Below the pieces are notes generated by a model that was not told the DNA's origin, ran no database searches, and saw only the letters and a program-made list of their open reading frames with translations. From Desulfobacteraceae bacterium (GTDB taxonomy: Bacteria; Desulfobacterota; Desulfobacteria; Desulfobacterales; ETH-SRB1): a stretch of DNA of 33,480 nt. The DNA is taken from assembly GCA_013202725.1 (NCBI GenBank), contig JABMRH010000192.1, forward strand, positions 1 to 33,480. Reading direction: 5' to 3'. This document shows positions 9,186 through 32,746 of this stretch, piece after piece. Position numbers and translations under genes: made by a program. Within the stretch, counting starts at the first letter, position 1; each line of letters opens with the position of its first letter.

Positions 9186-9368
9186 ACGGCCCCTGCCGTG
9201 TTCGTGATTAGAAGATGTTCTTTGACCCAACATTCATATTTAAGGGAGCTTTCACTGGTTTTGGTGAGCATGTTCTGCTTGTACAGAAAAGCCTAAAAAA
9301 ACTATAAGGCGCCCACTTTGAGCTTTGGCTCAAAGACCTTCTAACACGGCTATTTGGCGGGGGTCTTC
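9186..9368 (+). ncRNA. ssrS: Candidate 6S RNA
   Basis: About 180 nt of non-coding sequence directly after zapA. The 5' segment 9188-9214 and 3' segment 9338-9365 form an interrupted closing stem of about 20 bp: 9188-9195/9358-9365, 9196-9201/9344-9349 and 9209-9214/9338-9343. A perfect 8-bp hairpin (CTTTGAGC TTTG GCTCAAAG, 9316-9335) lies on the 3' side next to the stem. An apical TTCTG/CAGAA hairpin is also present. Ends are approximate. Confidence 0.6.
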
Positions 9369-9494: not shown

Positions 9495-9623
9495 CTCGTA
9501 AAAAGTCCCTCTTGCCTGTCATTTCGAGTGAAACGAGAAATCTTTATTCTGCAACCTATTGAAAAAATAAGATTTCTCCATGCTGTCGAAATGACATATT
9601 CGACGAATCTGACTTTTTACGAG
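9495..9623. repeat. Composite imperfect palindrome of about 129 nt (REP/MITE-like structured element)
   Basis: Three nested perfect arm pairs: CTCGTAAAAAGTC (9495-9507) / GACTTTTTACGAG (9611-9623); GTCATTTCGA (9518-9527) / TCGAAATGAC (9586-9595); GAGAAATCTT (9535-9544) / AAGATTTCTC (9569-9578). Confidence 0.65.
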
Positions 9624-19452: not shown

Positions 19453-19494
19453 AAATGGCAAACATTTATCCGTTTTGGCAAAATCTTGCCGAAA
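19453..19494 (+). promoter_or_regulatory. Upstream activator sequence, module A (half-site plus 8-6-8 palindrome)
   Basis: AAATGGCAAACATTTATCCG TTTTGGCA AAATCT TGCCGAAA. Near-identical blocks occur at 29596-29637 (minus strand) and 32582-32623. GGCA cores are 20 nt apart. Confidence 0.6.
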
Positions 19495-19543
19495 TCGAAT
19501 CCCTGAAATTATTCTCATGCAGAGAATGCAGATCTTTAAATCT

Positions 19544-19563
19544 TTATATATCAATAGGTTGCA
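19544..19563 (+). promoter_or_regulatory. IHF-like box, module A
   Basis: TTATATATCAATAGGTTGCA contains TATCAATAGGTTG, matching WATCAA-N4-TTR. The 20-mer is identical to 29527-29546 on the minus strand and lies at the same offset from the palindrome. Confidence 0.45.
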
Positions 19564-19590
19564 TTTGATTAATATAATTTTTTTGTTATT

Positions 19591-19606
19591 TGGTATGAAC
19601 ATTGCT
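19591..19606 (+). promoter_or_regulatory. Sigma54 (-24/-12) promoter, module A, for the CBS-DASS operon
   Basis: TGGTATGAACATTGCT has GG-N10-GC spacing and a TTGCT -12 box. It lies about 130 nt upstream of the CBS gene. Confidence 0.65.
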
Positions 19607-19735
19607 CTATTGCTCTGTGTTCAGGATAAGATAGGAAGCTTCAATTTATATTAATTTAATAACTTGATCTTATATAATTCAACAACATTATTCAAATTTA
19701 TTGCAAAGATTTTAATAAGATAGAGGGAGGTGTGC

Positions 19736-20260
19736 ATGACAAATACAAAAAAGGTGAAGGAACTCATGGTTAAGATAACCGATTATCCGCACATTCCTTA
19801 TTGGATGAGCATTCGGGATGCGATTGCCATGATGCACAGCGTTTATGACAAAGAATCAGGCCTGGGCGAAAATCGTATGGTTCTGGTTTTTGATGAAAGT
19901 TATCAGCTTATGGGTGTCTTAAGGCTAAGAAACCTGCTCATCGGCATAGAACCTAAATTTCTCAGGAAGGACGAAAAATCGCCTTACCAGGGCCTTAAAC
20001 ATGCTGATTATGCAGGTTTATCTGCACTTGTTGAAGGAACCTTTACGTCAAAATGTAAAGAAGAAGCAGCAAAACCTGTTAGCGAAGTCTTAACACCCAT
20101 AATAGCGACAGTTGATGCAAATGATTCTGTTTCAAAGGCGGCTTTTATAATGCTCCAGGCAGACATCAACCTGGTGCCCGTGATGGATGGTGACAAGGTG
20201 GCAGGTGTCTTACGCATGAGCGATGTCTTTAATGAACTTACTAAAATTGTAATAGAATAA
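19736..20260 (+). CDS. Stand-alone CBS-pair domain protein
   Basis: About 174 aa. Two CBS-like repeats (VKELMVKI...IRDAIAMM and VSEVLTPIIATVDANDSVSKAAFIMLQADINLVPVMDGDKVAGVLRMSDV). The ATG at 19736 is preferred over the GTG at 19730 because a GAGGGAGG SD lies 5 nt upstream. Confidence 0.8.
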   Translation: MTNTKKVKELMVKITDYPHIPYWMSIRDAIAMMHSVYDKESGLGENRMVLVFDESYQLMGVLRLRNLLIGIEPKFLRKDEKSPYQGLKHADYAGLSALVEGTFTSKCKEEAAKPVSEVLTPIIATVDANDSVSKAAFIMLQADINLVPVMDGDKVAGVLRMSDVFNELTKIVIE

Positions 20261-20272
20261 GGGAGGTGAACT

Positions 20273-21802
20273 ATGGCTGAAAAAGCAAAACCAATTGCAA
20301 AAGGTGAAGGCCTCCCTGAGATGCCGGATGAGATTATCCTTTCTCCTGAGAAGCCTCCATTAGACTGGAAGAGACTGCTTTTTATGTCAATAGGGATTAT
20401 CCTGTTTTTAGTTATCTATTTTGCTCCACCATGGCCGGATGCTATTGATCCTATGGGGGAGCATTTTGTCTTATCAAAAGCGGGCAAGGGAGCTCTGGCT
20501 GTTTTTGCGCTGGCCGGCACCTGGTGGGTATTTGAAGTCGTGCCTATAGGCGTAACCAGCATAATGATAGGGGTGCTGCAGGCCCTCTTTCAGGTCAGAT
20601 CCGCCAAAGTAGCCTTTAAGGATTTCATGGACCCCTCTGTTTTGTTTATCTTCGGTTCAATAGTCATTGGCATGGTCTTTACCAAGACAGGGCTGACCAA
20701 GCGTCTCGCGTATAAAATGCTGGAGATTGTAGGAGAAAAGACCAGCATGATCTATCTCGGCTGTTTTGTGGTGACAGCAGCCATGACTCACATCATGGCC
20801 CACACCGCAGTAGCCGCTACCATATTCCCTTTGCTTATGGCTATTTATGCCCTGTACGGAGAAGGTGACAAACAAACCAAGTTCGGCAAGGGGCTTTTTA
20901 TAGGCATGGCCTATGTGGCCGGCGCCGGCAGTATCGTGACCCTTCTTGGTGCGGCACGCGGGGCTGTGGCCATAGGTTTTTATAATGATATTATGAAACA
21001 GGATATAAGCTTTTTCCAGCTTACATATTACATGTTTATCCCGGGCTGGCTGATGACCTTTGCCTTGTGGGGATATTTCATGGTTGTCCTAAAACCCGAG
21101 AAAAAAACCATTCCAGGACTCCGCGAGAAAGCGAAAAAACTCAATGCCCAGTTGGGAAAGATTACCAAGGATGAGATTATGGCCATAGTCATCGTTGCTG
21201 CGGTGATTATTTTCCTGGCACTGCAGTCCTTTATACCGGAGTTGAAGATATTTAATAAAACGGCAGTTATTTTAGTTTCAACCGTAATATTTTTCCTTGT
21301 AAAAATCCTGGATATCAATGACCTCGAAGCAGTACCCTGGAATATTATACTGCTTTTTGCCGGAGCCATGAGCATTGGTTTTTGTCTCTGGGAAACAGGT
21401 GCTGCAAAATGGATGGCAGTAAACTGGCTGGTGATGTTCAAGGAGTCATCCGCGTTGGTGTTTGTAATGAGTATAGCCTTTTTTGTCATGATTATGACCA
21501 ACTTTATCATGAATGTCGCGGCTATTGCCATATCACTTCCAGTGGCTCTGGTTATCGCCCCATATCTTGGCGTGGCTGGAGAGGTGATACTCTTTGCGTC
21601 ACTGGTCGTAGCCGGCATGCCATTCCTCCTGCTGGTGGGTGCGGCTCCTAATGCAATAGCTTATGAATCAAAGCAGTTTTCAACAGGTGAGTTCTTTCTG
21701 TACGGTATTCCAGCCAGCATCCTTCTGATTGCGTGTGTGGCTCTGAGCGTAGGGGTGATCTGGCCGATTCTGGGAATGCCGATTAGTATACCGACACCAT
21801 AA
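20273..21802 (+). CDS. DASS (SLC13) family anion:cation symporter
   Basis: 509 aa, polytopic. Internal duplication typical of DASS carriers. Starts 12 nt after the CBS gene with a GGGAGGTG SD. Confidence 0.8.
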   Translation: MAEKAKPIAKGEGLPEMPDEIILSPEKPPLDWKRLLFMSIGIILFLVIYFAPPWPDAIDPMGEHFVLSKAGKGALAVFALAGTWWVFEVVPIGVTSIMIGVLQALFQVRSAKVAFKDFMDPSVLFIFGSIVIGMVFTKTGLTKRLAYKMLEIVGEKTSMIYLGCFVVTAAMTHIMAHTAVAATIFPLLMAIYALYGEGDKQTKFGKGLFIGMAYVAGAGSIVTLLGAARGAVAIGFYNDIMKQDISFFQLTYYMFIPGWLMTFALWGYFMVVLKPEKKTIPGLREKAKKLNAQLGKITKDEIMAIVIVAAVIIFLALQSFIPELKIFNKTAVILVSTVIFFLVKILDINDLEAVPWNIILLFAGAMSIGFCLWETGAAKWMAVNWLVMFKESSALVFVMSIAFFVMIMTNFIMNVAAIAISLPVALVIAPYLGVAGEVILFASLVVAGMPFLLLVGAAPNAIAYESKQFSTGEFFLYGIPASILLIACVALSVGVIWPILGMPISIPTP

Positions 21803-21830
21803 GCAAGTATGAGAGCCGGATTTTATGATT

Positions 21831-21870
21831 AAATTGTCTAAGGGGAGTTGTTCTCCCCTTAGACAATTTT
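21831..21870 (+). terminator. Rho-independent terminator of the CBS-DASS operon
   Basis: Perfect 17-bp stem AAATTGTCTAAGGGGAG (21831-21847) / CTCCCCTTAGACAATTT (21853-21869), 5-nt loop, T-rich tail. Confidence 0.8.
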
Positions 21871-21980
21871 GGCCCCGGAAAAATTTAGCATTTCTTAATT
21901 AATTCCTGAAGTTTCTTCATCTTTTCCCATTCGACGTTCGATGTTCATTTTTTTTCAGTCCCTCATTCTCCAACCATAAA

Positions 21981-22026
21981 AAAATTAAAGGCAGTTTCAA
22001 AACGTTTTGAAACTGCCTTTAATTTT
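21981..22026. terminator. 46-nt perfect palindrome, likely a bidirectional terminator (serves the minus-strand operon)
   Basis: AAAATTAAAGGCAGTTTCAAAAC|GTTTTGAAACTGCCTTTAATTTT, symmetric about 22003/22004. Flanked by an A7 run (21978-21984), which reads as a T-run on the minus-strand transcript. Confidence 0.75.
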
Positions 22027-22037
22027 AGTCCATTTCC

Positions 22038-22064
22038 CCGGCGGACCCTTCAGGGGGAGTCCGG
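22038..22064. repeat. 3' UTR arm of a 27-nt perfect inverted repeat (partner at 22182-22208)
   Basis: CCGGCGGACCCTTCAGGGGGAGTCCGG is the exact reverse complement of 22182-22208, which lies inside the last gene of the operon. Confidence 0.9.
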
Positions 22065-22074
22065 TCTCAATACT

Positions 22075-22818
22075 CTATTTGAAAAATTTCAGAAAGGCAT
22101 GCAGATTGGCCATGGGGTGGGAAGGACAGCCGGGTATATAAAGATCCACGGGAAGAAGGCTATCCAGACCCTCAGTTATTTCCGGACTCCCCCTGAAGGG
22201 TCCGCCGGAGATAGAACAACTGCCGACGGCAATAACCACTTTAGGATCAGGTACTGCTTCATATGTCTGTAACAGGGCTGTTTTCATGTTTCTTGAAATA
22301 GGTCCTGTTACAACAATGCCGTCTGAATGACGGGGGGATGCCACAAAGTTGATGCCAAAACGTGCTAGATCAAAGAAGGGGGTGGCCAGAACGTTCAAAT
22401 CTGCTTCACATGCATTACAACCGGCAGCAGAGACTTGACGCAGTTGCAAAGAACGACCAAACAGCTTTTTAAAATGCTGCCTTGCATGGTCGGCCAGAGA
22501 TGGAATCTCACCATCGGTTAACAAATGGTCTTTCTCGGCAACAGAATATCCAAAATCTCTGGTAAAGGAGATAAACCGTCCCTCTGAGATCCTCTCGCAT
22601 ATTCCGCAAAAAACGCAGCGCCCCATATTGATTAACTTTCGATCTATATCAATTGCATCCTGGGGACATGCTGCAGCGCATTTCACCACCAGATCGGACG
22701 GTGCATTTTTATGGACCTGGGGTCGTCCCCGGTACCGGGGCACCAATTCTACCGTCTTTTTTGGATAGGTGCTTGTCCGGTATCCCTGTTCAAATCTGTT
22801 TTTCAGTGTATTGAGCAT
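22075..22818 (-). CDS. NuoB/HyfI/HycG-like small subunit with an N-terminal degenerate ferredoxin-like segment (EhrS-type)
   Basis: 247 aa. NuoB-type ligand blocks: GCNACE, SPRHSDGIVVTGP, GSCSISGGPF, IPGCPSHP. The N-terminal part carries KCAAACP and CVFCGIC. Confidence 0.85.
   Translation of the reverse strand: MLNTLKNRFEQGYRTSTYPKKTVELVPRYRGRPQVHKNAPSDLVVKCAAACPQDAIDIDRKLINMGRCVFCGICERISEGRFISFTRDFGYSVAEKDHLLTDGEIPSLADHARQHFKKLFGRSLQLRQVSAAGCNACEADLNVLATPFFDLARFGINFVASPRHSDGIVVTGPISRNMKTALLQTYEAVPDPKVVIAVGSCSISGGPFRGSPEITEGLDSLLPVDLYIPGCPSHPMANLHAFLKFFK
22182..22208. repeat. Coding arm of the 27-nt perfect inverted repeat
   Basis: CCGGACTCCCCCTGAAGGGTCCGCCGG. On the minus strand it encodes SGGPFRGSPE of the small subunit. 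Confidence 0.9.
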
Positions 22819-22854
22819 TGTATCTCACTTTGGCAGTTAATAGGTTGTTGATAT

Positions 22855-24363
22855 TTATAGATCAAACCCGCAATAAGACAGGTTATAGCTCTTATTGTTC
22901 AGGGGAAAATCTGAAATTTCCGTATTTCTCAGCGACATGGCAAGGCCGTTCCAATTATGAAAGGAAGGGTCCTTTATCTTGTAACGGAGAATTTTTCCCT
23001 CTGCATCGGTAATAATGCAGTGGGAGAGTTCTCCGCGCCATGCTTCATTGACCGTGACTACAAAGGATGATGAAGGCAGGTTAAAAACTTCTGAATCAAC
23101 ACAGTTTGTTTCAATGGTGTCCTTTAAAAGAGATTTTATTATACTGATTGATTGCAGGATTTCTTCTGCTCTCATTTTTGCCCGGGCATAAACATCACCG
23201 GTTGTTTTTGCATTTTCAGGTATATCAATGCCGGGATAATATTCCGTAGCAAAAGTACGCCTTGCATCATAGGGCAGACCGCAAGCACGTCCGGCCGGCC
23301 CCACAAGACCAAGGTGGTTAGCGTCGGAAGTGCTTACTATGCCGCAGTCTTCAAAACGGGCTCTTACGCTGGAAGTGGAAAAAATCAAGTCGATGACATG
23401 TTCCACCTGGGGTTCAAGTTCATTAATTCGTCTCATTAATTCTCTGCTTATTTCATCATCAATGGAAAAACGGACACCGCCCGGGCGAACAAGTCCTTTT
23501 CCCATCCGGTTTCCGCAGATCAAAAGAGACATATTCAGGAAATCACCGCGCATCCTGCCGCAATAATTGGCAGGGGGCAAAAATGCCACATCACCGCTCA
23601 AGGCGCCAAGATCGCCAACGTGATTGGCAATTCGCTCAAGTTCCAGTCCTATGATTCTTATGATACGGGAGCCCTGGTCGGTTTGAATGGATGTAAGGGC
23701 TTCTACAGCCTGGGCAAAGGATACTCCATTTGCAACTGTAGTGTCGCCGGCAATACCTTCGATGATAATTGGAAGACGTTTTGAATCTGCCTTTAATATT
23801 AGATTTTCGATGCCCCGGTGCTGATAACCAAGCTGGATTTCAAGATGCAGCACCCGTTCTCCAATACAATTGAATCTGAAATGACCTGGTTCAATGATAC
23901 CTGCATGGACCGGACCTACAGCCACCTCATGAATTTCGTCCCCTTCGACTGAATAGTAAGGGTAGTTTCCAGGGATATCTTCCGTGTAATCATTGCCAAA
24001 AACGTCTTTTTTGCCTTGGCTGTTGGGATGATAACGCACCATTTTCAGCCAGGGATGATACTTGGGTACAATGCCGAACTGTTCGGCAATCTCCCGCTCA
24101 AACAATTGGAATGGTTCGCATTTATTAGAGAAAGAGGGATATTCATCAGGGGCGTCACAGCCTGCAACAAGCAGTTTGTCTGTCCTCAACACAGCCATAA
24201 GCTTGACTATGCTGTTGTCTGCATATCCAAAATATTGAACAATTTTTCCTCCGCCCCAGACAATCTTCATGGCATTTTTCTGAAAATCATCAAAAGTAAG
24301 GTGGGGAATCTGTTCTCTGGATAAAGCCTGGCCATTTGAAATTTCTAAAAAATCTGTGTCCAT
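22855..24363 (-). CDS. Fused NuoC-NuoD / HyfG/HycE-like large subunit lacking the [NiFe] cysteine ligands (EhrL-type)
   Basis: 502 aa from the ATG at 24363, which has a GGAGGA SD and a TAATG overlap with the upstream gene. The 539-aa six-frame ORF start is rejected. NuoC block FQLFEREIAEQFGIVPKYHPW. Hydrogenase/NuoD blocks GPVHAGIIEPGHFRF, LGYQHRG, IKDPSF. The ligand positions read EGIAGDTTVANG and SYNLSYCGFDL. Confidence 0.85.
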   Translation of the reverse strand: MDTDFLEISNGQALSREQIPHLTFDDFQKNAMKIVWGGGKIVQYFGYADNSIVKLMAVLRTDKLLVAGCDAPDEYPSFSNKCEPFQLFEREIAEQFGIVPKYHPWLKMVRYHPNSQGKKDVFGNDYTEDIPGNYPYYSVEGDEIHEVAVGPVHAGIIEPGHFRFNCIGERVLHLEIQLGYQHRGIENLILKADSKRLPIIIEGIAGDTTVANGVSFAQAVEALTSIQTDQGSRIIRIIGLELERIANHVGDLGALSGDVAFLPPANYCGRMRGDFLNMSLLICGNRMGKGLVRPGGVRFSIDDEISRELMRRINELEPQVEHVIDLIFSTSSVRARFEDCGIVSTSDANHLGLVGPAGRACGLPYDARRTFATEYYPGIDIPENAKTTGDVYARAKMRAEEILQSISIIKSLLKDTIETNCVDSEVFNLPSSSFVVTVNEAWRGELSHCIITDAEGKILRYKIKDPSFHNWNGLAMSLRNTEISDFPLNNKSYNLSYCGFDL

Positions 24364-25787
24364 TAATATCCTCCGCCGATGGTAGCCACCGCATCGATAA
24401 TCGTCTGGTACAAGGAGTCTGGCAACCAGAAGCACAATACAATTGAGGTAAGAAGCAGTGCATACTGGGGCCATACCATACTTGCTTTCTCTGTTATTTT
24501 AATTTCTTCGGCAGTTGTATCGTGAAAGGAGATTTTCATTACCTGATTTGCAAATCCTGCAAAAATAACGCAGAGACTTAAGATAAATATCCCTGCCACG
24601 AAAAAGTGGCCTGTCCTAAAGGCTCCGACAATAATAAATAGTTCTCCAATAAAAATTCCAAATGGGGGAAAGCCGGAGATTCCGGCAAATCCGCCAAAAA
24701 ACGCCACAAAACTTTTGGGCATAAGCTTTGCCAATCTACCTGTCTTTTCAATGAGTCCGCTACCATACCCCAAAAGGATATTTCCGGAAGTTAAAAACAG
24801 GGAAGATTTAATTAAACTGTGATGGATCAGGCAGATAATTGCTCCGAATGCACCAATGCCGCCGATACCTGTACCAAAGGCAATGATTCCCATGTTTTCA
24901 ACGCTTGAATAGGCAAGCATTCTTTTGTATTCAGTCTGTTTGAGGATAAAGGTGGCTGCTGCAATGATGGAGATTAAACCAAAGACAATAAGAATAGTAC
25001 CGGAAAAATCACCAAGTCCTGCTGCATGCATTATTTTGTTGGTTTTAAAAATTCCAAGGTATGCGCAGTTGAGCAATACGCCGGATAAAAGTGCAGATGC
25101 CGGGCTGGGGGCTTCACTATGGGCATCAGGCAACCAGGTATGCATGGGCGCCAGCCCCATTTTTGTACCATATCCAACAAATATAAAAACAAAACCTGCC
25201 TTGAGCCATGTGGGATCAAGCTGTTTTGCCACAGAGGTAAGGGCTGAAAAGGATACAGGAGCGTCTACCTTGCCTATATCCATGGCAAGTGTAATGAGAA
25301 CTGATCCCAGAAGCGCCATGGCAATGCCCACAGAACAGATCAGAACATATTTCCAGGTGGCTTCAAGGGAAGCTTTTGTTCTATGGGTATAAATCAGAGG
25401 AGCACTTGCAAGAGTGGTGGCCTCTATGGCGATCCACATAACCATGATATGGTCTGACATGGTCACCATTGTCATGGTTGCCAAAAAGATCAGCATGGAC
25501 CCGGTAAAAATATGTTCAGACTTAATCTTTGCCGCTTTAAGATAACCTGTTGAGTATATGGCGATCAGGAAAAAGAGCAATGAAATAACAAGCAGGGATA
25601 ACAGTCCCTCAGGTGTTACTGCAAAATAATCCGGGAAAAGAGCAACAGGTCTCTTTATCCAAATCAGAACAGAGAGTCCGAGGTGAAATGCACCAGTGAG
25701 CACCAGGAGCGCACGGCCGGATGACCTTGGAAGAAAAAACGCCATAATGCCGGTTAGAAACGGGGCCAACATAAGGATTTCAATCAT
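24363..25787 (-). CDS. NuoM/N / HyfF-like antiporter-type membrane subunit (EhrD-type)
   Basis: 474 aa, about 14 TM helices. Blocks typical of proton-conducting membrane transporter subunits: LAPMHTWLPDAHSEAPSPASALLSGVLLN, MLAYSSVENMG. Confidence 0.85.
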   Translation of the reverse strand: MIEILMLAPFLTGIMAFFLPRSSGRALLVLTGAFHLGLSVLIWIKRPVALFPDYFAVTPEGLLSLLVISLLFFLIAIYSTGYLKAAKIKSEHIFTGSMLIFLATMTMVTMSDHIMVMWIAIEATTLASAPLIYTHRTKASLEATWKYVLICSVGIAMALLGSVLITLAMDIGKVDAPVSFSALTSVAKQLDPTWLKAGFVFIFVGYGTKMGLAPMHTWLPDAHSEAPSPASALLSGVLLNCAYLGIFKTNKIMHAAGLGDFSGTILIVFGLISIIAAATFILKQTEYKRMLAYSSVENMGIIAFGTGIGGIGAFGAIICLIHHSLIKSSLFLTSGNILLGYGSGLIEKTGRLAKLMPKSFVAFFGGFAGISGFPPFGIFIGELFIIVGAFRTGHFFVAGIFILSLCVIFAGFANQVMKISFHDTTAEEIKITEKASMVWPQYALLLTSIVLCFWLPDSLYQTIIDAVATIGGGY

Positions 25788-25798
25788 GAAAGAATCAC

Positions 25799-26440
25799 CT
25801 ATTCCTTTAAAGTTCTTAAAACCGCAGTGTCAACAACATCAAACTTCTGTTTGATATTCTGAAGTATAATGGCCATGACCATTACACCGGCCAATACATC
25901 AAGAAGAATACCAAATTCCACAATATGATGGGCACGCGTGGAGAACGTCGTTCCAACAAGATAGATTCCGTTTTCCATCATAATATAGCCAAGGACCATG
26001 GCAATGGCATTTCTCCTTGCCATCAGCAGAAACATTCCGGTCACAAGAATTGTTATGGCCGTAGGTATTAACAAAGCACTTTTCATAATTAATGGTACAT
26101 TTAACTTGTAACTCACAACAGATGCGGCAACGATTAATACCAGACCTGCAAACAGGGAGGCATGATATCCGATAATAGGCTCCACCTCCCGACGGATGGC
26201 AACTCTTTTTATAACCAGATAAATGCTCAAGGGGATTACAACTCCCCTGATCCAGAGGGTGACCATGGTAAAAAGAAGACCGCCGCCTGTCATTTCATGA
26301 CCGATAAAGAAAGGCACAATAGAAACAACCACTCCCTGAAAAGCCACGAACCTGATAAGTCCTGTAAGATGGCTGGTTCCCAGGGAAAACAGGACGGACA
26401 GCAGCACAAGGGACAAGATGGTATCGACCGGATGTATCAT
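25799..26440 (-). CDS. HyfE-like (NuoK-related) membrane subunit (EhrC-type)
   Basis: 213 aa, about 7 TM helices, in the operon position of HyfE. ATGA overlap with the upstream gene. Confidence 0.75.
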   Translation of the reverse strand: MIHPVDTILSLVLLSVLFSLGTSHLTGLIRFVAFQGVVVSIVPFFIGHEMTGGGLLFTMVTLWIRGVVIPLSIYLVIKRVAIRREVEPIIGYHASLFAGLVLIVAASVVSYKLNVPLIMKSALLIPTAITILVTGMFLLMARRNAIAMVLGYIMMENGIYLVGTTFSTRAHHIVEFGILLDVLAGVMVMAIILQNIKQKFDVVDTAVLRTLKE

Positions 26441-27354
26441 TTTATAAACTCCATGATGATAACGGTTGCAAAAGAAGCCAGGGCAAAAGAAGTCAGAATA
26501 AATTTTGGCACTTTGTCCATTCTGTAACGGGCCATAACCGATTCAGTAACCCCGGCAGCAACATACACACATATAAGACTACAAATTTCCAAAGCAGGGT
26601 TGAGCGTCTCAAAAGGAAAAAACAAAGGAAAAAGCAGTCGCGAAACAATGGTTGAGTAGAAAAAGAGCTTGCAGAATGATGCTAACTCAATAAATCCAAA
26701 ATCAGGACCGCTATGGTCCAGCACCATAACCTCATGGATCATGGTCAGCTCCAGGTGAGTTGCCGGATCATCTACGGGAACCCTGGAATTTTCTGTTAAA
26801 AGAACGATAAAAAGGGCAATAACAACGAAAAGCATTGTTGAGCCTGCACTATTCCATAGAATAGCGGGATTATTTCCGCTAAAATAGGAAGCAAGGCTTA
26901 ATTCACCCGTCAGTTTGTAAAACAGGATCAGAACCATGAACATTGTGGCTTCGCATATTATGGGGAAATACGCTTCCCTGGCAGCGCCCATTCCTTCAAA
27001 AGGAGAAGCTGTATCCATTGCAGCGGCAATGGTAAAAAAACGTCCCAGTCCAAGGAGATATAAAACAAACAATACATCACCGTTAAAGGAAAAAACAGGC
27101 GCTATGCCTGCAATGGGCAGGAACATTAATGCCGTGGCAGCTGAGCTCAGGGAAATAATGGGGCCAAGCTTAAAGATAATCGTCGTGCTGGTGCTATAGA
27201 CTGATCCCTTTTTAAACAGTTTGATCAAGGTGTAATAATTGATCAGAAACGGTGAGCCTTTCCTTCCCCCAAAAAAAGCCTTGACCTTTATAATAATTGC
27301 GGAAAAGAACGGCGCCAGAAGCATGGCAAGGCACCAGATATAAATTGGTTTCAT
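26437..27354 (-). CDS. NuoH / HyfC/HycD-like membrane subunit (EhrB-type)
   Basis: 305 aa, about 8 TM helices. Loop PVDDPATHLELTMIHEVMVLDHSGP occupies the position of the NuoH/HycD charged loop. Confidence 0.8.
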   Translation of the reverse strand: MKPIYIWCLAMLLAPFFSAIIIKVKAFFGGRKGSPFLINYYTLIKLFKKGSVYSTSTTIIFKLGPIISLSSAATALMFLPIAGIAPVFSFNGDVLFVLYLLGLGRFFTIAAAMDTASPFEGMGAAREAYFPIICEATMFMVLILFYKLTGELSLASYFSGNNPAILWNSAGSTMLFVVIALFIVLLTENSRVPVDDPATHLELTMIHEVMVLDHSGPDFGFIELASFCKLFFYSTIVSRLLFPLFFPFETLNPALEICSLICVYVAAGVTESVMARYRMDKVPKFILTSFALASFATVIIMEFIK

Positions 27355-27449
27355 AGTGCATCCTCTTTCAAAAAACTCAATGTTAATACTATGCTCAAGC
27401 CCAAACGATCCTTTAGGTCAGTTAACTTTTATATGCCAAAAGAGCACAT

Positions 27450-29411
27450 TTACACAAAAAACAGCACAACAATAACGGCAAGCAGAATATATCCTATATA
27501 AAGATGAATATCTCCGTGCTGCATCCAGCGTAATTTATCAAAAAAGAACAGTACCGGACGAACTATCACGTTGTGCTGGTGAAGCTCAGCAATATCATTA
27601 ACATGACTATGATAGTGTGTCTTTCTTCTAGGCATCCGTCCACGAATTGGGGGGTGATCTTCATGCACAGGGGCAAAAGGCCTGAAAAAATCAATTATGG
27701 ATGCTGCATAAGAAGATCCTGTATACTGCATTTTAACAGTAGGCTGGGTAAATCCACAACCCCAGGTTCCTGATCGGGTAATGGATTTGCCTCTGTATGC
27801 TAACGCACGGATTATAAGAACAAAAAGAACAACGGCAAAAAATAGCGCTGCAGCCCGGGTTATGTTGCCTGTCATGCGAACGATCGGTTCAAACTGAATC
27901 CATTCGTAACCAAGGCCCAGGGAGGAAACTCCTTTCATGGCCATGAGTATAAAAAACTTGGGGTAAACACCTATGATAAGACAAAAACCTGCCAGTACCA
28001 GCATAGGGGCCAGCATGGAAAAGCCTTGCTCATCCACGTTCTCAGCTGCCGCACTTCTTGGCTCACCCTGGAAAACCACTCCCACAACTTTGGTAAAACA
28101 GGCCAGGGCCAGACCACCGATAACTGCAAGACTGATAATGGCAATAAGACTCATGGCAAAGGTCATTCTGTCCAATCCAACGCCCTTGAACCCACCTATA
28201 TAGATAAGGAACTCACTTACAAAACCGTTAAAGGGCGGGAGTCCGGAAATTGCCAGGGAGCCTATGAGAAAAGTAGTTCCGGTAATTTTCATTTTTTTGA
28301 TAAGTCCGCCCAGGATATCGATGGTGCGAGTACCGGTTTTCTTCAAAACCATTCCTGCCCCCATAAAGAGGAGTGATTTAAAAATGGCATGATTGAGCAC
28401 ATGCAAAAGGCCCCCTGAGAATCCAAGTATTGCCATGGGAACATTTCCAGATGACACACCGATCATGCCGATTCCTGTTCCAATGAGAATGATTCCAATA
28501 TTTTCCACACTGTGGTAAGCCAGAAGCCGTTTTAGGTCATGCTGACCCAGGGCATAGACTACTCCAAGGACTCCGGAAATACAACCGGCCGCAAGAACAA
28601 TGCCTCCAATGACTGGTGAATGGTAGTTTAAAAGAACATACATACGAATAATACCGTAAATACCTACCTTGATCATTACGCCTGACATAACTGCGGAAAT
28701 ATGGCTTGGAGCAGCAGGGTGTGCATGGGGCAACCAGACGTGGAAGGGAAAAACGCCGGCCTTGGAGCCGAAACCAATGAAGAATAGAATAAATACTATA
28801 AGTTTAAATGTATCAGGTAATGAAACCATTTGCCCAAACCCTAAACTGCCTGTATGGGCATATGCTACTCCAAACCCTGCAAAGATAAACATTGCACCTA
28901 CATGAGAGAAAACAAAATATAGATAACCTGCCCTGCGATTTTCAATTGCCTCATAATTAAATATGACCAGGAAAAAAGAAGAAAGGGACATGATTTCCCA
29001 AGAAAGCATAAAAGTGATCATGCCTTTAGAGGCTACTACCAGCGCCATAGACACGATAAGCAGGCTGAAAAAAAGGTAGTTTGTTGCTGTGCGAAGGGCT
29101 TTGTCAGTTTTGTCCATATAATGAAAACTGTAAATGCTTGCCAATAAAGAGATAGCGAAGATAGTGACCAGAAAAAAAGCTGACAGACCATCAATTTGAA
29201 AAGAAAGGGAAAAGGATTTTAGATATTTAAAAGAAGCAACATACTCTCCTGGACTTATCAGCTTGGATCCGGCGTCAACCAGACCCAGAATGCATCCTGC
29301 AACAATGGTAAAAACACTGAAAATCTTCATCATGAAAAATTGTCGCCTAATTAAGGGGGCAAACAGGCCCCCTGCAAATATTATCAACAGAGATAGAAAA
29401 AATAGATTCAT
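27450..29411 (-). CDS. NuoL / HyfB-like antiporter-type membrane subunit (EhrA-type)
   Basis: 653 aa. Contains FPFHVWLPHAHPAAPSHISAVMSGVMIKVG and LLAYHSVENIG. The C-terminal extension with TWGCGF..MQYTGSSYA is as in HyfB-type subunits. GAGAGGA SD upstream. Confidence 0.88.
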   Translation of the reverse strand: MNLFFLSLLIIFAGGLFAPLIRRQFFMMKIFSVFTIVAGCILGLVDAGSKLISPGEYVASFKYLKSFSLSFQIDGLSAFFLVTIFAISLLASIYSFHYMDKTDKALRTATNYLFFSLLIVSMALVVASKGMITFMLSWEIMSLSSFFLVIFNYEAIENRRAGYLYFVFSHVGAMFIFAGFGVAYAHTGSLGFGQMVSLPDTFKLIVFILFFIGFGSKAGVFPFHVWLPHAHPAAPSHISAVMSGVMIKVGIYGIIRMYVLLNYHSPVIGGIVLAAGCISGVLGVVYALGQHDLKRLLAYHSVENIGIILIGTGIGMIGVSSGNVPMAILGFSGGLLHVLNHAIFKSLLFMGAGMVLKKTGTRTIDILGGLIKKMKITGTTFLIGSLAISGLPPFNGFVSEFLIYIGGFKGVGLDRMTFAMSLIAIISLAVIGGLALACFTKVVGVVFQGEPRSAAAENVDEQGFSMLAPMLVLAGFCLIIGVYPKFFILMAMKGVSSLGLGYEWIQFEPIVRMTGNITRAAALFFAVVLFVLIIRALAYRGKSITRSGTWGCGFTQPTVKMQYTGSSYAASIIDFFRPFAPVHEDHPPIRGRMPRRKTHYHSHVNDIAELHQHNVIVRPVLFFFDKLRWMQHGDIHLYIGYILLAVIVVLFFV

Positions 29412-29484
29412 ACAATCCTCTCTAAATAATCATTTCACAGCCTTTAGTTGACGGAATGGCCTGAGTCAGCATTTTTACATAAAG

Positions 29485-29500
29485 AGCAAGGTTTATACCA
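29485..29500 (-). promoter_or_regulatory. Sigma54 (-24/-12) promoter, module B, for the Ehr-type operon
   Basis: The minus strand reads TGGTATAAACCTTGCT with GG-N10-GC spacing. It is identical to the 16-mer at 32719-32734 and lies about 75 nt upstream of the start at 29411. Confidence 0.7.
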
Positions 29501-29526
29501 AATGGTAGAAAATTATAAAAAACCAT

Positions 29527-29546
29527 TGCAACCTATTGATATATAA
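29527..29546 (-). promoter_or_regulatory. IHF-like box, module B
   Basis: The minus strand reads TTATATATCAATAGGTTGCA, identical to 19544-19563. It contains the WATCAA-N4-TTR match TATCAATAGGTTG. Confidence 0.45.
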
Positions 29547-29566
29547 AAAATTTATATAAAAAATTT
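29541..29566. repeat. Tandem A-tract 13-mer (ATATAAAAAATTT x2) between the UAS and the promoter
   Basis: Exact tandem copies at 29541-29553 and 29554-29566. Phased A/T tracts are consistent with intrinsically bent DNA. Confidence 0.8.
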
Positions 29567-29595
29567 TTGGATGATAATAATTTTTGGATGTTTAG

Positions 29596-29637
29596 TTTTG
29601 GCAAGATTTTGCCAAAACAGATGATTGTTTACCAATC
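29596..29637 (-). promoter_or_regulatory. Upstream activator sequence, module B
   Basis: The minus strand reads GATTGGTAAACAATCATCTG TTTTGGCA AAATCT TGCCAAAA. The 8-6-8 palindrome is perfect. It lies about 96 bp upstream of the -24 box and also faces the divergent LbH gene. Confidence 0.6.
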
Positions 29638-29885
29638 AGATGATAACCTTTGTCGATTTTCGGCTTGACGCATAACTATAAATATGATACATTGCAAAAT
29701 AAATTATTATTCTTTTTTTAAGAGCATTTGTTCCGGCATTTAAAGCTGTTGATAAAATCGCGATAATTCTTATCTCTACACTCCTTTTCTTACAATTCTC
29801 AACGGGTGGATTCTTTGGATAATGAATCCCGGCAAGTGTTCAGTTATTATTTATCCAGGCAGCTTATTAATACTTCAATTCTATA

Positions 29886-29915
29886 GGGGGATAAAGAATG
29901 GGGGGATAAAGAATG
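29886..29915 (+). repeat. Tandem duplication of SD plus ATG (GGGGGATAAAGAATG x2)
   Basis: Exact 15-nt copies at 29886-29900 and 29901-29915. The first ATG (29898) opens ATG GGG GGA TAA. The second ATG (29913) opens the 473-aa ORF. Confidence 0.9.
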
Positions 29916-31334
29916 GAGCAGTTAAAAAGTCTTAATGATCTTAATGATAGAATTGTAAACAGAGTAAATATAAGTTTACAAGAATTTGATTTTAACGCAA
30001 ATGCTTTTGTAACAAAAGCTATGAATCATGATAAAATGCTTAAATTTTATGCATTTTATGGAATCACTTCTCAACATCCGATTTATTTCAATTTTAGCAA
30101 TTCTAATATATCCGGCAGTTATTTTTTGGGAAAATGTTCTGTTAGAAGATCTGCAATCTATAAAAGTGATATAAGAGGAGATGAACTTAAAAGAAAAGGA
30201 AATAACAGTTTAAGATCTAACAAACTTCCGCTTGTTCAAGATGAAATAATAATCATCAGACACAGCCTGCTCTACAAAACACTTGTTCACAATAATTCAC
30301 ATAATCCTGGGACACCGGAAGAATTTCTTATCATAAACACAATGTCAACGCATTACGCTAATATTCATGGTTCTACACTTGAAGGATGTTTCTTAGGACC
30401 TTTTGCAACAGTTGATCTGATGAATCTTCATTCATGCATTATTGGTGAATTTTCATATGTTCAGGCGGGTGAACTTTTCCAGACGATTATTGATCCGGGA
30501 ACAATATGGATTAGAAATCCCAGCTTTAGTTTCAAGTATAAATTTGAAAAAAAAGTTCTGGATAAATATATTGGTGTAAACCCATCATATCAACCGCGTG
30601 GAATTATATACGATTTTGTAAAAGAAAAAGAAAGAGAATATGAATCACTTTTTGATGTTGTAGATATAATACCTGTAGAAACTCCTCCTAGTTCTGCTGT
30701 TAACAGGTATGCTGTTGTTAAAGGAAAAACCAGTATTGGTGAAAATGTTCTAATATCTCAACATGCATTTTTAGAAAATGCCGAAATGGGCAAAGGATCT
30801 AATGCTCAAGAAAATTCATATATTATTAATTCATGTTTAGCCGGTTTTAATATTACAGCACATGGAGCCAAGATTATCAATGCGGAAATAGGTCTTGAAA
30901 CATTTGTTGGCTTTAATTGTTTTTTAAATGGTAAAACAACTAAAAGACTGGTAATCGGTGATAATTGTATTGTTATGCCTCATACAATAATTGATTCAAC
31001 TGAACCGGTTGAAGTACCTGATAATCATCTTATATGGGGTTATATCGGATCTCAAAATGATCTTGATAATCACTCTATTAGTATTGATAAACTTTCAGAT
31101 TCTCGAGATATGATAACTATTGGCAAAATGACTTTTATAGGAAAAGGTTCTGTTTTTATTGGTATTTTTAAAAAAAGAATCAATCATATTCTACATTCCA
31201 ACGGTGCATTTTTTAAAGACGATGAGAACCGTGGTCATGCACAGGACGATCAAATTATTTCATTTAATACAATTCAACCATATAGAACAGGTGTTAATAA
31301 AGGAATCTATCCATCAATTAAAATTGAACCATAA
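29913..31334 (+). CDS. Hexapeptide-repeat (left-handed beta-helix) protein with two LbH segments, gamma-carbonic-anhydrase/acyltransferase-like; function unknown
   Basis: 473 aa. N-terminal LbH turns: IHGSTLEGCFLGPFATVDLMNLHSCIIGEFSYVQAGEL. C-terminal gamma-CA/PaaY-like segment: SIGENVLISQHAFLEN...NITAHGAKIINAEIGLETFVGFNCFLNG...VIGDNCIVMPHTII...LIWGYIGSQ. Visibly more AT-rich than its neighbours. Confidence 0.65.
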   Translation: MEQLKSLNDLNDRIVNRVNISLQEFDFNANAFVTKAMNHDKMLKFYAFYGITSQHPIYFNFSNSNISGSYFLGKCSVRRSAIYKSDIRGDELKRKGNNSLRSNKLPLVQDEIIIIRHSLLYKTLVHNNSHNPGTPEEFLIINTMSTHYANIHGSTLEGCFLGPFATVDLMNLHSCIIGEFSYVQAGELFQTIIDPGTIWIRNPSFSFKYKFEKKVLDKYIGVNPSYQPRGIIYDFVKEKEREYESLFDVVDIIPVETPPSSAVNRYAVVKGKTSIGENVLISQHAFLENAEMGKGSNAQENSYIINSCLAGFNITAHGAKIINAEIGLETFVGFNCFLNGKTTKRLVIGDNCIVMPHTIIDSTEPVEVPDNHLIWGYIGSQNDLDNHSISIDKLSDSRDMITIGKMTFIGKGSVFIGIFKKRINHILHSNGAFFKDDENRGHAQDDQIISFNTIQPYRTGVNKGIYPSIKIEP

Positions 31335-31388
31335 AAAAATTAATAATTGGGGATCAGGGTTTCTCAAGGATGTTGGAATGTATGCAAA

Positions 31389-32390
31389 TCATATAGGGGG
31401 TTTTGAACTTCGTTCATATTTTATGTTATATTTTTGAAGTTTGTATCTTAAAGTTCTTGGACTTATACGTAGTATTTTTGCTGTTTTTTCCTTGTCGCCG
31501 GCGAGGCGGTGTAATGTATCCATAATAGCTTTTTTTTCAGCCTCACTTCTGATTTCCTCAAGGTCCTTTATACGGTGGGGATCTTTAAAATGCCATAAAA
31601 AATCAGAGGGAAGATGTTCTACGCTTATCGTATCGTAATCGTTGAGGATAAATACTCTTTCTAAAAGATTTTTCAATTCCCTTACATTGCCGGGCCAGTC
31701 ATAACGACAGAAAAGGTCAATGACTTCAGGCTTAACAGCTGGCTTTGGTTTTTTAAAATTAATTGCCGATTGATTCAGAAAGCGGTCTACCATTTTTGGA
31801 ATAACGTTTTTCCTGTCTCTTAAGGGCGGTACATATATGGGAACTACATGAAGCCTGTAAAATAAGTCTTCTCGAAATAATCCCTTCTTGACTTCGTTTT
31901 TCAGGTCTTTATTTGTTGCCGATATAATACGGACGTCTACTTCAATTATTTCATTTCCTCCAATTCGGTGAAAGCAGAAATCTTCTAAAACACGTAAAAA
32001 ATCAATCTGATTTTCAAGAGGAAGATCAGAAACCTCGTCAAGGAAAAGGGTCCCTTTGTCAGCCATCTCAAAGCAGCCTTTTTCTTGGCAAATGGCGCCG
32101 GTAAAGGCTCCTTTTTCATGACCGAAAAGCTTGTCTTCGAACATAAGGCCTGAAAGAATGCCGGAGTTCACCGGCACAAAGGGATTTTCAGCTCTAGGGC
32201 TTTGCAGGTGAATGATTTTGGCAACCAGTTCCTTACCAGTGCCGCTTTCACCTGTAATCAGTACATTAACATCGTGTTTGGCCACTTGATTTACAGTTTG
32301 CATAATGGAGTGCATCACTTCTGCGCCCAGGATGAACTCATGCATGATTGATTCCTGGAGGTGCTTTATATAGGGAGAATGCAGTTTCAT
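31389..32390 (-). CDS. Sigma54-dependent transcriptional activator (bEBP) lacking an N-terminal sensory/receiver domain (PspF/HrpS-like architecture)
   Basis: 333 aa, or 318 aa if it starts at the ATG at 32345, which has an AGGAA SD. Walker A GESGTGKE, GAFTGA motif (EKGAFTGA), Walker B LFLDEV, C-terminal HTH KTAKILRISPRTLRYKLQKY. The AAA+ core begins within about 30 aa of the start. Confidence 0.9.
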   Translation of the reverse strand: MKLHSPYIKHLQESIMHEFILGAEVMHSIMQTVNQVAKHDVNVLITGESGTGKELVAKIIHLQSPRAENPFVPVNSGILSGLMFEDKLFGHEKGAFTGAICQEKGCFEMADKGTLFLDEVSDLPLENQIDFLRVLEDFCFHRIGGNEIIEVDVRIISATNKDLKNEVKKGLFREDLFYRLHVVPIYVPPLRDRKNVIPKMVDRFLNQSAINFKKPKPAVKPEVIDLFCRYDWPGNVRELKNLLERVFILNDYDTISVEHLPSDFLWHFKDPHRIKDLEEIRSEAEKKAIMDTLHRLAGDKEKTAKILRISPRTLRYKLQKYNIKYERSSKPPI

Positions 32391-32581
32391 ATACTTTTGC
32401 GGCTTTTCATCTCCAGAATTTTACAGTCAAATCTTTCAACCATAGCTTCTTTGTCTGTTTAGTCGCTTTAAGAAAGCAGGCCCACAGGAAGGAGAACAAA
32501 ATTCAAATATTAGTTGGGTATGCGAATATTTTCATATCTTTTAACCTGAATATATACCAGTGTCAAACAGATTCAGAATTG

Positions 32582-32623
32582 AAACGGCAAACTTTTATCC
32601 TTTTTGGCATAAATTTGCCAAAA
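32582..32623 (+). promoter_or_regulatory. Upstream activator sequence, module C
   Basis: AAACGGCAAACTTTTATCCT TTTTGGCA TAAATT TGCCAAAA. Same layout as modules A and B. Lies between the divergent bEBP and CBS genes. Confidence 0.6.
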
Positions 32624-32677
32624 CTTATACATAAAGAAGCTGTATGCAAACCGCTTATAGCAAATAAATAACAAGAA

Positions 32678-32690
32678 TATCATGTAATTA
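32678..32690 (+). promoter_or_regulatory. IHF-like box, module C (one mismatch)
   Basis: TATCATGTAATTA versus WATCAA-N4-TTR. It lies exactly 76 nt from the palindrome start, as in modules A and B. Confidence 0.35.
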
Positions 32691-32718
32691 TGTCAAGAAA
32701 AGATGATTCTTTGCCGGT

Positions 32719-32734
32719 TGGTATAAACCTTGCT
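32719..32734 (+). promoter_or_regulatory. Sigma54 (-24/-12) promoter, module C
   Basis: TGGTATAAACCTTGCT is identical to the module B promoter. It lies 117 nt from the palindrome start, the same as module B. It falls inside the 5' end of the six-frame ORF 32690-33235. Confidence 0.6.
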
Positions 32735-32746
32735 CTAAGATATTGT

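Follow-up and report, generated by a model that had tools for sequence, protein, structure and literature searches.

A conserved enhancer-IHF-sigma-54 promoter module and its neighbouring sensor-less activator predict a small regulon of CBS-domain, anion-symporter and Ehr-type genes in Desulfobacterales

Introduction

How sulfate reducers control the uptake of sulfate has so far largely been inferred from gene neighbourhoods. A 33,480-nt stretch of DNA from a Desulfobacteraceae bacterium of the ETH-SRB1 lineage (GenBank assembly GCA_013202725.1, contig JABMRH010000192.1; the full stretch is termed the window below) raises this question in a more defined form. Three intergenic regions of the same design, named modules A, B, and C, precede a CBS-pair protein gene and a DASS-type anion symporter gene (A), an Ehr-type operon related to complex I and group-4 hydrogenases (B), and a second CBS-pair protein gene (C). 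Are these regions sigma-54 control regions of a single regulon, and which protein would act on them? We estimate at roughly 0.8 the probability that modules A, B, and C function as sigma-54 control regions of a single small regulon bound by the bacterial enhancer-binding protein (bEBP) encoded in their neighbourhood. The argument draws on the anatomy of the modules, on their conservation, and on the linkage and domain content of the candidate activator.

Results

Three modules of near-identical anatomy

The modules span positions 19456–19606 (module A, plus strand), 29634–29485 (module B, minus strand), and 32585–32734 (module C, plus strand). Each is composed of the same four parts at one fixed spacing: two tandem GGCA-N8-TGCC-type sites, termed upstream activating sequences (UAS1 and UAS2), a box matching the IHF (integration host factor) consensus, and a TGGTAT-N5-TTGCT promoter (Table 1). 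The sequences and coordinates proposed for the modules in the initial annotation were all correct on re-reading of the window, and the shared geometry, recomputed from the coordinates, gave the same values: 76 nt from the start of the palindrome to the IHF core in all three modules, 118 (A), 117 (B), and 117 (C) nt from the start of the palindrome to the TGG of the promoter, and exactly 20 nt between the GGCA/GGTA cores of the two UAS sites.

Motif counts in the window were compared with those in shuffled sequence. With up to two mismatches, the 8-6-8 palindrome TTTTGGCA-N6-TGCCRAAA matches only at 19473–19494, 29596–29617, and 32602–32623; 0.09 matches are expected from shuffles, and none of 100 shuffles attained the observed count. 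The exact promoter motif TGGTAT-N5-TTGCT is likewise confined to 19591, 29500 (minus strand), and 32719, and allowing one mismatch adds a single intragenic match, with 0.8 expected from shuffles at that stringency. In addition, a 17-mer, TATATCAATAGGTTGCA, is identical in modules A and B.

All three promoters carry the GG and GC dinucleotides exactly 10 nt apart and follow the consensus TGGYAY-N5-TTGCW, in agreement with the canonical spacing and TTGCT −12 box noted at the outset. They lie upstream of genes and are oriented toward them, the −12 element being separated from the start codon by 13 (C), 74 (B), and 130 (A) nt. Between the UAS and the promoter, the IHF core TATCAATAGGTTG of modules A and B agrees with nine of the nine specified positions of WATCAANNNNTTR, and the IHF-like core TATCATGTAATTA of module C with eight of the nine. 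The match is accompanied by an A/T-rich 5′ flank, which in module B is formed by the tandem A-tract 13-mer of the initial annotation, a genuine repeat of 2.1 copies of TATATAAAAAATT at 29540–29566. As for the UAS, which had been described as two GGCA/GGTA cores plus an 8-6-8 inverted repeat, the palindrome and the 20-nt spacing of the cores stand, while UAS1 of the window has a good left half only and becomes a full palindrome in GC-richer relatives. Two predicted dimer sites two helical turns apart, a predicted IHF bend near −61, and a −24/−12 promoter together constitute the classical enhancer geometry.

Conservation of the module and its linkage to one activator gene

The GTDB collection, with one genome per species, was scanned with the pattern TTGGCA-N6-TGCCRA-N{85,110}-TGGYA-N6-TTGC, and loci were accepted when they also displayed UAS1, which the pattern does not select, and a CBS/bEBP gene context. 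Most of the 115 loci retrieved are chance matches or conserved coding sequence, as is a cluster with an 85-nt gap from Alphaproteobacteria and others, which was rejected. Twenty-one loci carry the unselected upstream GGCAA with a gap of 94–99 nt. All belong to Desulfobacterales-type metagenome-assembled genomes; Eth-SRB1 is represented, and three of the contigs come from Desulfobacteraceae S3_36. An ortholog of the bEBP (62–97% identity by tblastn) is adjacent and divergent in 17 of these 21 loci, and downstream of the modules lies a CBS_C-type gene (often followed by a second CBS gene and a gene for an 850-aa phosphoenolpyruvate (PEP)-synthase-like dikinase), the CBS_A-DASS pair, or both. A looser scan of the same loci brought out additional modules, including the ortholog of module B ahead of the Ehr operon. 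Because UAS2 and the promoter are biased by the pattern search, an independent test was seeded with protein: among metagenome loci retrieved by the bEBP protein alone, the module stands beside the bEBP gene in nine out of nine.

In total, 40 distinct modules were found in about 25 Desulfobacterales genomes. An alignment of 28 modules reveals four conserved blocks, GGCAA (UAS1), TTGGCA-N6-TTGCC (UAS2), ATAWCAA-N4-TT (IHF box), and TGGYA-N6-TTGC, in which TGG and TTGC are invariant; between the blocks, identity across module types is 43–50%. The best match to the IHF consensus falls 39–42 nt upstream of TGG in 37 of the 40 distinct modules, a position that none of the searches demanded.

The cultured Desulfococcus multivorans (DSM 2059) also possesses the module (locus L125), upstream of its 162-aa CBS gene. 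Its genes are arranged as a hexapeptide-repeat (LbH) gene and a receiver (REC) gene, then DASS<-CBS<-CBS, the module, and ->bEBP (67% identity). Here the gap measures 98 nt, both GGCA-N8-TGCC palindromes are full, and an IHF-like box and TGGTATTATGTTTGCA are present. At the same locus, a gene for a diadenylate cyclase (DAC domain, 11074–12510) is convergent with the bEBP gene. This adjacency was considered as a hint that the CBS proteins sense c-di-AMP and dismissed, as it is absent from every other locus.

Repeated units of about 150 bp could also be a dispersed or mobile repeat or the outcome of a recent neutral duplication, or at the least module B could be a non-functional copy. Such an origin would be in keeping with the close similarity of modules A and B and the likely derivation of B from an A-type module (see below), with the tandem duplication of the enhancer part in two relatives, and with the absence of the Ehr operon and module B from some strains. 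Across species, however, only the four functional blocks are kept while the spacers diverge, no terminal repeats or target duplications are seen, and UAS2, the IHF box, and the promoter of module B are perfect. Furthermore, the modules lie upstream of genes and point at them in every copy, with the sole exception of one at a contig end. The initial annotation had itself named a repeat scattered over non-promoter positions as the outcome that would overturn it; instead, the three window copies are all promoter-proximal, and the strict pattern finds one to four copies per genome. We regard the repeat explanation as very improbable.

In the contig-end case (L007, 1–300), long heptanucleotide tandem repeats (runs of ACACCTG and GAACCCT) occupy the place downstream of the module and no gene is present, which is probably an assembly-end artefact or a rearrangement. 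L080 (460–660) and L119 (7435–7588) carry a tandem duplication of the UAS (and IHF) part of module A, so that additional copies of the enhancer precede cbsA. Finally, the alphaproteobacterium Skermanella stibiiresistens (L098, 6093–6226) has a TGGTATAAACCTTGC identical to that of modules B and C together with a TTATATCAATGGCTTGC box at a gap of 101 nt and no related genes nearby, and we treat this match as chance or as an unrelated sigma-54 promoter.

A sensor-less enhancer-binding protein

The 333-residue product of the gene divergent from module C matches PF00158 (2e-63), AAA_lid_14, and HTH_8, and contains the GESGTGKE, LFLDEV, and GAFTGA motifs of a bEBP. Residue 23 of 333 already opens the AAA+ domain, and no N-terminal REC, GAF, PAS, or CBS regulatory domain lies ahead of it. 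The top 120 homologs (63–97% identity, 309–406 aa) are equally restricted to AAA+, lid, and HTH_8 domains. This is the sensor-less architecture of the PspF/HrpRS type, a point not made in the initial annotation, and its activity must therefore be set in trans or by abundance. The recognition helix, ISPRTLR(H/Y)K, is nearly invariant in the family, which fits the conserved UAS.

Two orthology assignments were examined and rejected. As a PspF, the protein scores 243.5 bits with TIGR02974 (cutoff 443.55) and 199 with NF008622 (cutoff 529), and in structure comparison FleQ, NtrC, and ZraR score above PspF. As a PrdR, its best NCBIfam match (NF041552, over the AAA+/HTH part), it reaches 330 bits against a cutoff of 795.

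The bEBP gene has a sigma-70-type promoter of its own close to UAS1 of module C (Table 1), identical or near-identical in nine lineages and followed by an indel-rich leader. Its position leaves room for autoregulation of the activator. Between this UAS1 and the −35 hexamer lies a ATTCAGAAT palindrome (32567–32584, minus-strand reading), invariant in the aligned lineages, which could be the site of another regulator. The bEBP gene had been placed next to both modules B and C. This holds for module C; in the case of module B, the hexapeptide-repeat gene intervenes. A sigma-54 promoter serving the latter gene from the UAS of module B was also considered and discarded, since 29637–29913 holds no plus-strand GG-N10-GC candidate.

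The UAS might conversely be read by an activator encoded on the other side, either an NtrC-type regulator tied to the kinase encoded at 17569–19104 or the 72-aa product of an HTH_8 open reading frame (ORF), since the kinase, a receiver protein, and this ORF all lie just upstream of module A. Palindromes of this size are, in general, targets of HTH_8 domains. The ORF, however, consists of an AAA+ sensor-I-like stub joined to the HTH, and among the examined loci it recurs only in L120 (11338–11621), where a frameshift connects the same HTH with a fragment reaching from Walker B to sensor I. Both are what deletions have left of an NtrC-type bEBP gene that followed the kinase gene, and the 72-aa protein was accordingly dropped as a second UAS binder. 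The kinase and HTH genes thus stand outside the conserved system, the HTH being a relic and the segment 10703–19417 being missing from strains that keep module A, whereas a bEBP ortholog accompanies the module in the pattern-derived (17/21) and protein-seeded (9/9) loci. Recognition by another activator is, in our estimation, unlikely.

The 8.7-kb segment 10703–19417 is a strain-level indel: L017 and L117 lack it and have a Ca/Na antiporter gene immediately beside module A. Its genes in the window are those for a paralog of the PEP-synthase-like dikinase, two receivers, a CitMHS/TrkA_C transporter, a cytidylate-kinase-like protein, and the kinase, along with the HTH relic. The Ca/Na antiporter gene is closely preceded by an imperfect 38-nt inverted repeat (9517–9596) that surrounds TGCAACCTATTGAAAAA, the IHF-box core of modules A and B with two mismatches.

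Genes behind the modules

Gene identities were assigned from Pfam and NCBIfam profile matches. Module A is followed by cbsA and the DASS gene, and the 120-nt leader of cbsA-DASS shows no conserved RNA structure (0 predicted pairs). The operon behind module B gives NuoB-, NuoC/D-, NuoH-, NuoK-, and NuoL/M/N-like Pfam matches. Judged by eye against the known motifs, its large subunit has IAGDTT at the CxxC position and a single Cys at the C terminus, and its NuoB-like subunit keeps the cluster cysteines. The label 'Ehr-type' is fair on account of this combination of a large subunit devoid of NiFe cysteine motifs with a NuoB-like subunit that retains its cluster cysteines, and the Cys-less, hydrogenase-like character that the initial annotation gave to the putative ion pump agrees with the missing CxxC and the complex-I-like Pfam set.

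Behind module C, the initial annotation had the CBS gene start at 32690. Alignment with CBS_A and orthologs moves the start to the ATG at 32747, as the longer ORF would contain the promoter itself. The cbsC ATG lies 14 nt after the C of the −12 element in the window and in five further loci (L016, L021, L047, L068, and L075); in other lineages, 30–36 nt separate the two and include a Shine-Dalgarno sequence. A sigma-54 mRNA that is leaderless or has a leader of 1–3 nt is therefore predicted in the clade of the window.

Table 1 Coordinates of the modules, genes, and associated features in the window
Feature	Position	Strand	Remark
Module A UAS1, TGGCAAACATTTATCC	19456–19471	+	GGCAA invariant in 28 aligned modules
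Module A UAS2, TGGCAAAATCTTGCCG	19476–19491	+	Putative activator site, palindromic; 20 bp centre to centre with UAS1
Module A IHF-consensus core, TATCAATAGGTTG	19549–19561	+	About −68 to −56 relative to predicted start
Module A sigma-54 −24/−12 promoter, TGGTATGAACATTGCT	19591–19606	+	Predicted start near 19617
Module B UAS1, TGGTAAACAATCATCT	29619–29634	−	
Module B UAS2, TGGCAAAATCTTGCCA	29599–29614	−	Perfect palindrome
Module B IHF core, TATCAATAGGTTG	29529–29541	−	A/T 13-mer x2 directly 5′
Module B −24/−12 promoter, TGGTATAAACCTTGCT	29485–29500	−	Predicted start near 29474, 63 nt ahead of first Ehr gene
Module C UAS1, CGGCAAACTTTTATCC	32585–32600	+	
Module C UAS2, TGGCATAAATTTGCCA	32605–32620	+	Perfect palindrome
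Module C IHF-like core, TATCATGTAATTA	32678–32690	+	8/9 specified positions
Module C −24/−12 promoter, TGGTATAAACCTTGCT	32719–32734	+	Predicted start near 32745
bEBP, 333 aa (AAA+ sigma-54 interaction, lid, and HTH_8 domains)	31389–32390	−	No N-terminal sensor domain
Sigma-70-type promoter of bEBP gene, TTGACA-N17-TAAAAG	32538–32566	−	Conserved; −35 hexamer 18 nt from module C UAS1
CBS_A, CBS-pair protein, 174 aa	19736–20260	+	First gene of module A operon; GGAGG 7 nt before ATG
DASS/SLC13 sodium-coupled anion symporter, 509 aa	20273–21802	+	Putative Na+:sulfate symporter; 75% identity to D. multivorans cluster gene
CBS_C (cbsC), CBS-pair paralog, 162 aa	32747–33235	+	After module C; ATG 14 nt after −12 C (32733)
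Six-gene Ehr-type operon (complex I/group-4 hydrogenase-like)	22075–29411	−	Behind module B
Ehr HyfB/NuoL-like	27450–29411	−	
Ehr NuoH-like	26437–27354	−	
Ehr NuoK-like	25799–26440	−	
Ehr antiporter-like	24363–25787	−	
Ehr NuoC/D-like	22855–24474	−	Without NiFe cysteines
Ehr ferredoxin-NuoB-like	22075–22818	−	
Hexapeptide-repeat (LbH) protein, 473 aa	29913–31334	+	Like PDB 3C8V; conserved neighbour of CBS-DASS/Ehr
HTH_8 ORF, 72 aa	19137–19355	+	AAA+ sensor-I-like stub (IRIAIIENKDL) joined to HTH

Ehr as a predicted, lineage-specific member

The initial annotation spoke of otherwise unlinked functions gathered in one regulon. This does not hold, since the CBS, DASS, hexapeptide-repeat, and Ehr genes are syntenic in other Desulfobacterales even where the sigma-54 module is missing. 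One distant genome has CBS-DASS-LbH, then an Ehr operon in convergent orientation and one more CBS gene, with sigma-70-like promoters throughout; another has CBS-DASS-LbH behind a sigma-70-like promoter. In Desulfonema ishimotonii, REC-CBS-DASS stands behind a TGGTAT-N5-TTGCT promoter without a GGCA-N8-TGCC site. Universal sigma-54 control of CBS-DASS was consequently rejected (sigma-70-like promoters in L130/L132 and L131; no GGCA-N8-TGCC site in Desulfonema ishimotonii). The distant genomes that keep the neighbourhood under sigma-70-like promoters indicate that the syntenic link is independent of the module and that the sigma-54 wiring is clade-specific.

The spacer of module B is 65–71% identical to those of A-type modules, and modules A and B of the window are 84–87% identical over stretches of 39–44 nt. 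Module B accordingly looks like a promoter copied from an A-type module, its spacer being closest to this type. Two close relatives, L117 and L120, lack the Ehr operon and module B together with the first two-thirds (5′ part) of the hexapeptide-repeat gene. The missing region corresponds to about 22308–30870 of the window (L117, 7057–9900; L120, 7051–8916), and all that is left of it in L117 is a C-terminal remnant of EhrB. The Ehr operon is thus a presence/absence polymorphism among relatives. In yet another locus (L114), a module directly drives the LbH gene, an HTH-EIIA gene, and an EhrL-like gene, which suggests that Ehr was drawn into the regulon more than once. Of the single small regulon of CBS, DASS, and Ehr genes first proposed, the modules and the bEBP linkage are conserved and the Ehr membership is lineage-specific.

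Other features of the window

Near the convergent DASS and EhrB genes, a perfect 23 + 23-nt palindrome occupies the intergenic region (21981–22026), and a 90% copy of part of it is located inside the large-subunit gene (23773–23802). Just 3′ of ehrB, a 30-nt GC-rich sequence is 97% complementary to a segment within the ehrB coding sequence 117 nt away (22035–22064/22182–22211). Behind the ATP synthase and NTP-transferase genes, the long intergenic region contains a 6S RNA gene (9187–9367, plus strand; full-length match to Rfam RF00013, 105.7 bits), and the Rfam scan of the window found no other RNA family.

Discussion

The comparison supports the existence in Desulfobacterales of a new, well-delimited sigma-54 regulon with a PspF-like activator that is not PspF. 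Several observations weigh against the proposed functional assignment of the modules. In the pattern-derived loci, the conservation of UAS2 and of the −24/−12 promoter is partly by construction, which leaves the protein-seeded loci as the independent evidence. UAS1 is a half-site in the window, the mismatch of the module C IHF box falls in the conserved ATCAA, and neither an rpoN nor an ihf gene is present inside the window. The more distant genomes, as described above, hold the same gene neighbourhood under sigma-70-like promoters. The near relatives of CBS_C (a small family, with 156 representatives at E<=1e-3) are stand-alone proteins with no CBS-AAA+ fusion among them, and the CBS proteins could instead be accessory subunits of the neighbouring transporter or dikinase. 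Lastly, the homologous DASS/CBS cluster proteins are reported to be abundant and constitutive in cultured Desulfobacteraceae (PMC11887813), which agrees poorly with tight switching by sigma-54 unless laboratory conditions keep the activator on at all times.

The following mechanism may be proposed. The 333-residue activator would be produced from its own conserved sigma-70 promoter abutting UAS1 of module C, and its dimers would bind the two tandem GGCA-N8-TGCC sites, centred some 133 and 153 bp upstream from the predicted start, where they would assemble into an active AAA+ ring. IHF, bound at the consensus site near −61, would bend the DNA and allow the ring to contact the sigma-54 holoenzyme on TGGTAT-N5-TTGCT, and ATP hydrolysis would then open the promoter. 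The predicted targets are cbsC, behind which relatives have another CBS gene and genes for the PEP-synthase-like dikinase and a PAS kinase; cbsA-DASS, which would supply a putative Na+:sulfate symporter; and, in the lineage of the window, the cysteine-less Ehr ion-translocating complex through the copied module B.

What would set the activity of a bEBP lacking a sensor domain? The co-induced CBS proteins are plausible leading candidates for a sensor acting in trans. Our preferred guess is a PspA/PspF-like feedback, in which a CBS-pair protein induced by the regulon itself would read the adenylate or adenosine 5′-phosphosulfate (APS) energy state and gate the activator. The two would then form a split CBS-AAA+ activator setting symporter and Ehr transcription, and such gating would couple the import of sulfate with the ion gradient that powers this import. 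We put this forward as a tentative idea, and one that may well prove wrong. The PrdR model, which in its C-terminal part is the best NCBIfam match of the bEBP, has a weak match to CBS_A in its N-terminal part, and one REC-CBS fusion in the CBS_C family indicates a signalling role for this type. CBS domains are documented as N-terminal sensor domains of bEBPs (PMC6615313).

A serious rival, which we hold to be possible if short of probable, retains the sigma-54 promoters and has the bEBP constitutively active and controlled by its amount only, the CBS proteins being subunits of the neighbouring transporter or dikinase. In phenylphosphate synthase, a PEP-synthase-like enzyme, a CBS-pair protein is a stimulatory subunit, and each CBS gene considered here is beside a DASS or a dikinase gene. 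The conserved sigma-70 promoter adjoining UAS1, with its possible autoregulation, the lack of CBS-AAA+ fusions among CBS_C relatives, and the description of the cluster proteins as constitutive (PMC11887813) also speak for this scheme. Set against it are the position of CBS_C, which in most loci is the first gene beside the bEBP gene and has no obvious enzyme partner, and the signalling role suggested by the REC-CBS fusion. Moreover, the known sensor-less bEBPs, PspF and HrpR/S, are under the control of partner proteins, and partner proteins have been proposed as a requirement for EBPs without N-terminal domains.

The nearest precedent for gating of the bEBP by a co-induced protein is the E. 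coli pspF-pspABCDE system, in which an AAA+/HTH-only activator is encoded divergently from its target operon, with two UAS, an IHF site, a sigma-54 promoter, and a sigma-70 promoter beside the UAS. All these elements recur here, including the activator's own sigma-70 promoter beside the UAS and a first operon product that is a candidate trans-regulator. The present system differs in that its bEBP is not a PspF ortholog, no PspA-family gene is present, the first divergent gene encodes a CBS-pair protein, the targets concern transport and bioenergetics rather than envelope stress, and the UAS motif is GGCA-N8-TGCC. The PspF analogy is also invoked in PMC4641369.

In a sulfate reducer, an IHF-dependent sigma-54 operon has been documented (PMC3897727). 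The OrpR-IHF-sigma-54/orp system and the Desulfovibrio vulgaris sigma-54 regulome (PMC3897727, PMC8359166, PMC4641369) share with the present case a cognate EBP in the neighbourhood, IHF, divergent genes, UAS motifs reached by comparative genomics, and some EBPs without N-terminal domains. The order (here Desulfobacterales), the EBP family, the motif, and the targets are different, and OrpR has an Fe-S-cluster sensor domain. In the PrdR-type and other CBS-containing bEBPs of Clostridiales (PMC6615313; NF041552), CBS and activator form one polypeptide, unlike the separate proteins found here; the PrdR model gives the best score for the AAA+/HTH part of our bEBP, and the UAS of PrdR is TGT-N10-12-ACA. 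Desulfobacteria are reported to be rich in EBPs, and the regulon is not listed in the sigma-54 regulon surveys that we checked.

As a putative sulfate-transporter cluster, the gene set itself has been published before, but not its sigma-54 wiring. A 2025 study (Sci Adv, PMC11887813; see also PMC5840216) describes in Desulfobacteraceae a 'DASS-type sulfate transporter gene cluster' with CBS proteins, two-component systems, and a hexapeptide-repeat 'transferase', suggests CBS-based sensing of energy or APS status, and proposes control of the cache-kinase/WalR type. The window matches it in gene content, with a DASS symporter, CBS-domain proteins, a hexapeptide-repeat protein, and two-component genes nearby; the sigma-54 promoter, UAS, IHF site, sensor-less bEBP, and Ehr link are not described there. 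The DASS protein of the window is 75% identical to the product of a D. multivorans gene whose neighbours appear in the protein list of that study, sulfate transport being putative: Dmul_C10640 and Dmul_C10660 appear, by annotation and locus-tag spacing only, to be the response regulator and CBS genes of the module locus. In D. autotrophicum, the DASS gene HRM2_40290, whose transcript responds to sulfate concentration, is near the sigma-54 regulator gene HRM2_40310; the sigma-54 promoter, UAS, IHF site, and sensor-less activator appear in none of these publications.

The class of UAS-IHF-sigma-54 control is textbook knowledge, so that the advance consists of a new regulon and a hypothesis rather than a new principle. 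The module nonetheless offers a testable handle, with a defined activator, a defined 16-bp site, and a predicted co-regulation of symporter, CBS proteins, dikinase, and, in one lineage, Ehr, and its presence in the cultured D. multivorans makes experimental tests feasible. Should gating by the CBS proteins be true, it would open a first way into the physiology and regulation of the enigmatic Ehr complexes, whose ion gradient the symporter would consume, and would represent an unrecognised layer of control on sulfate uptake in marine sulfate reducers.

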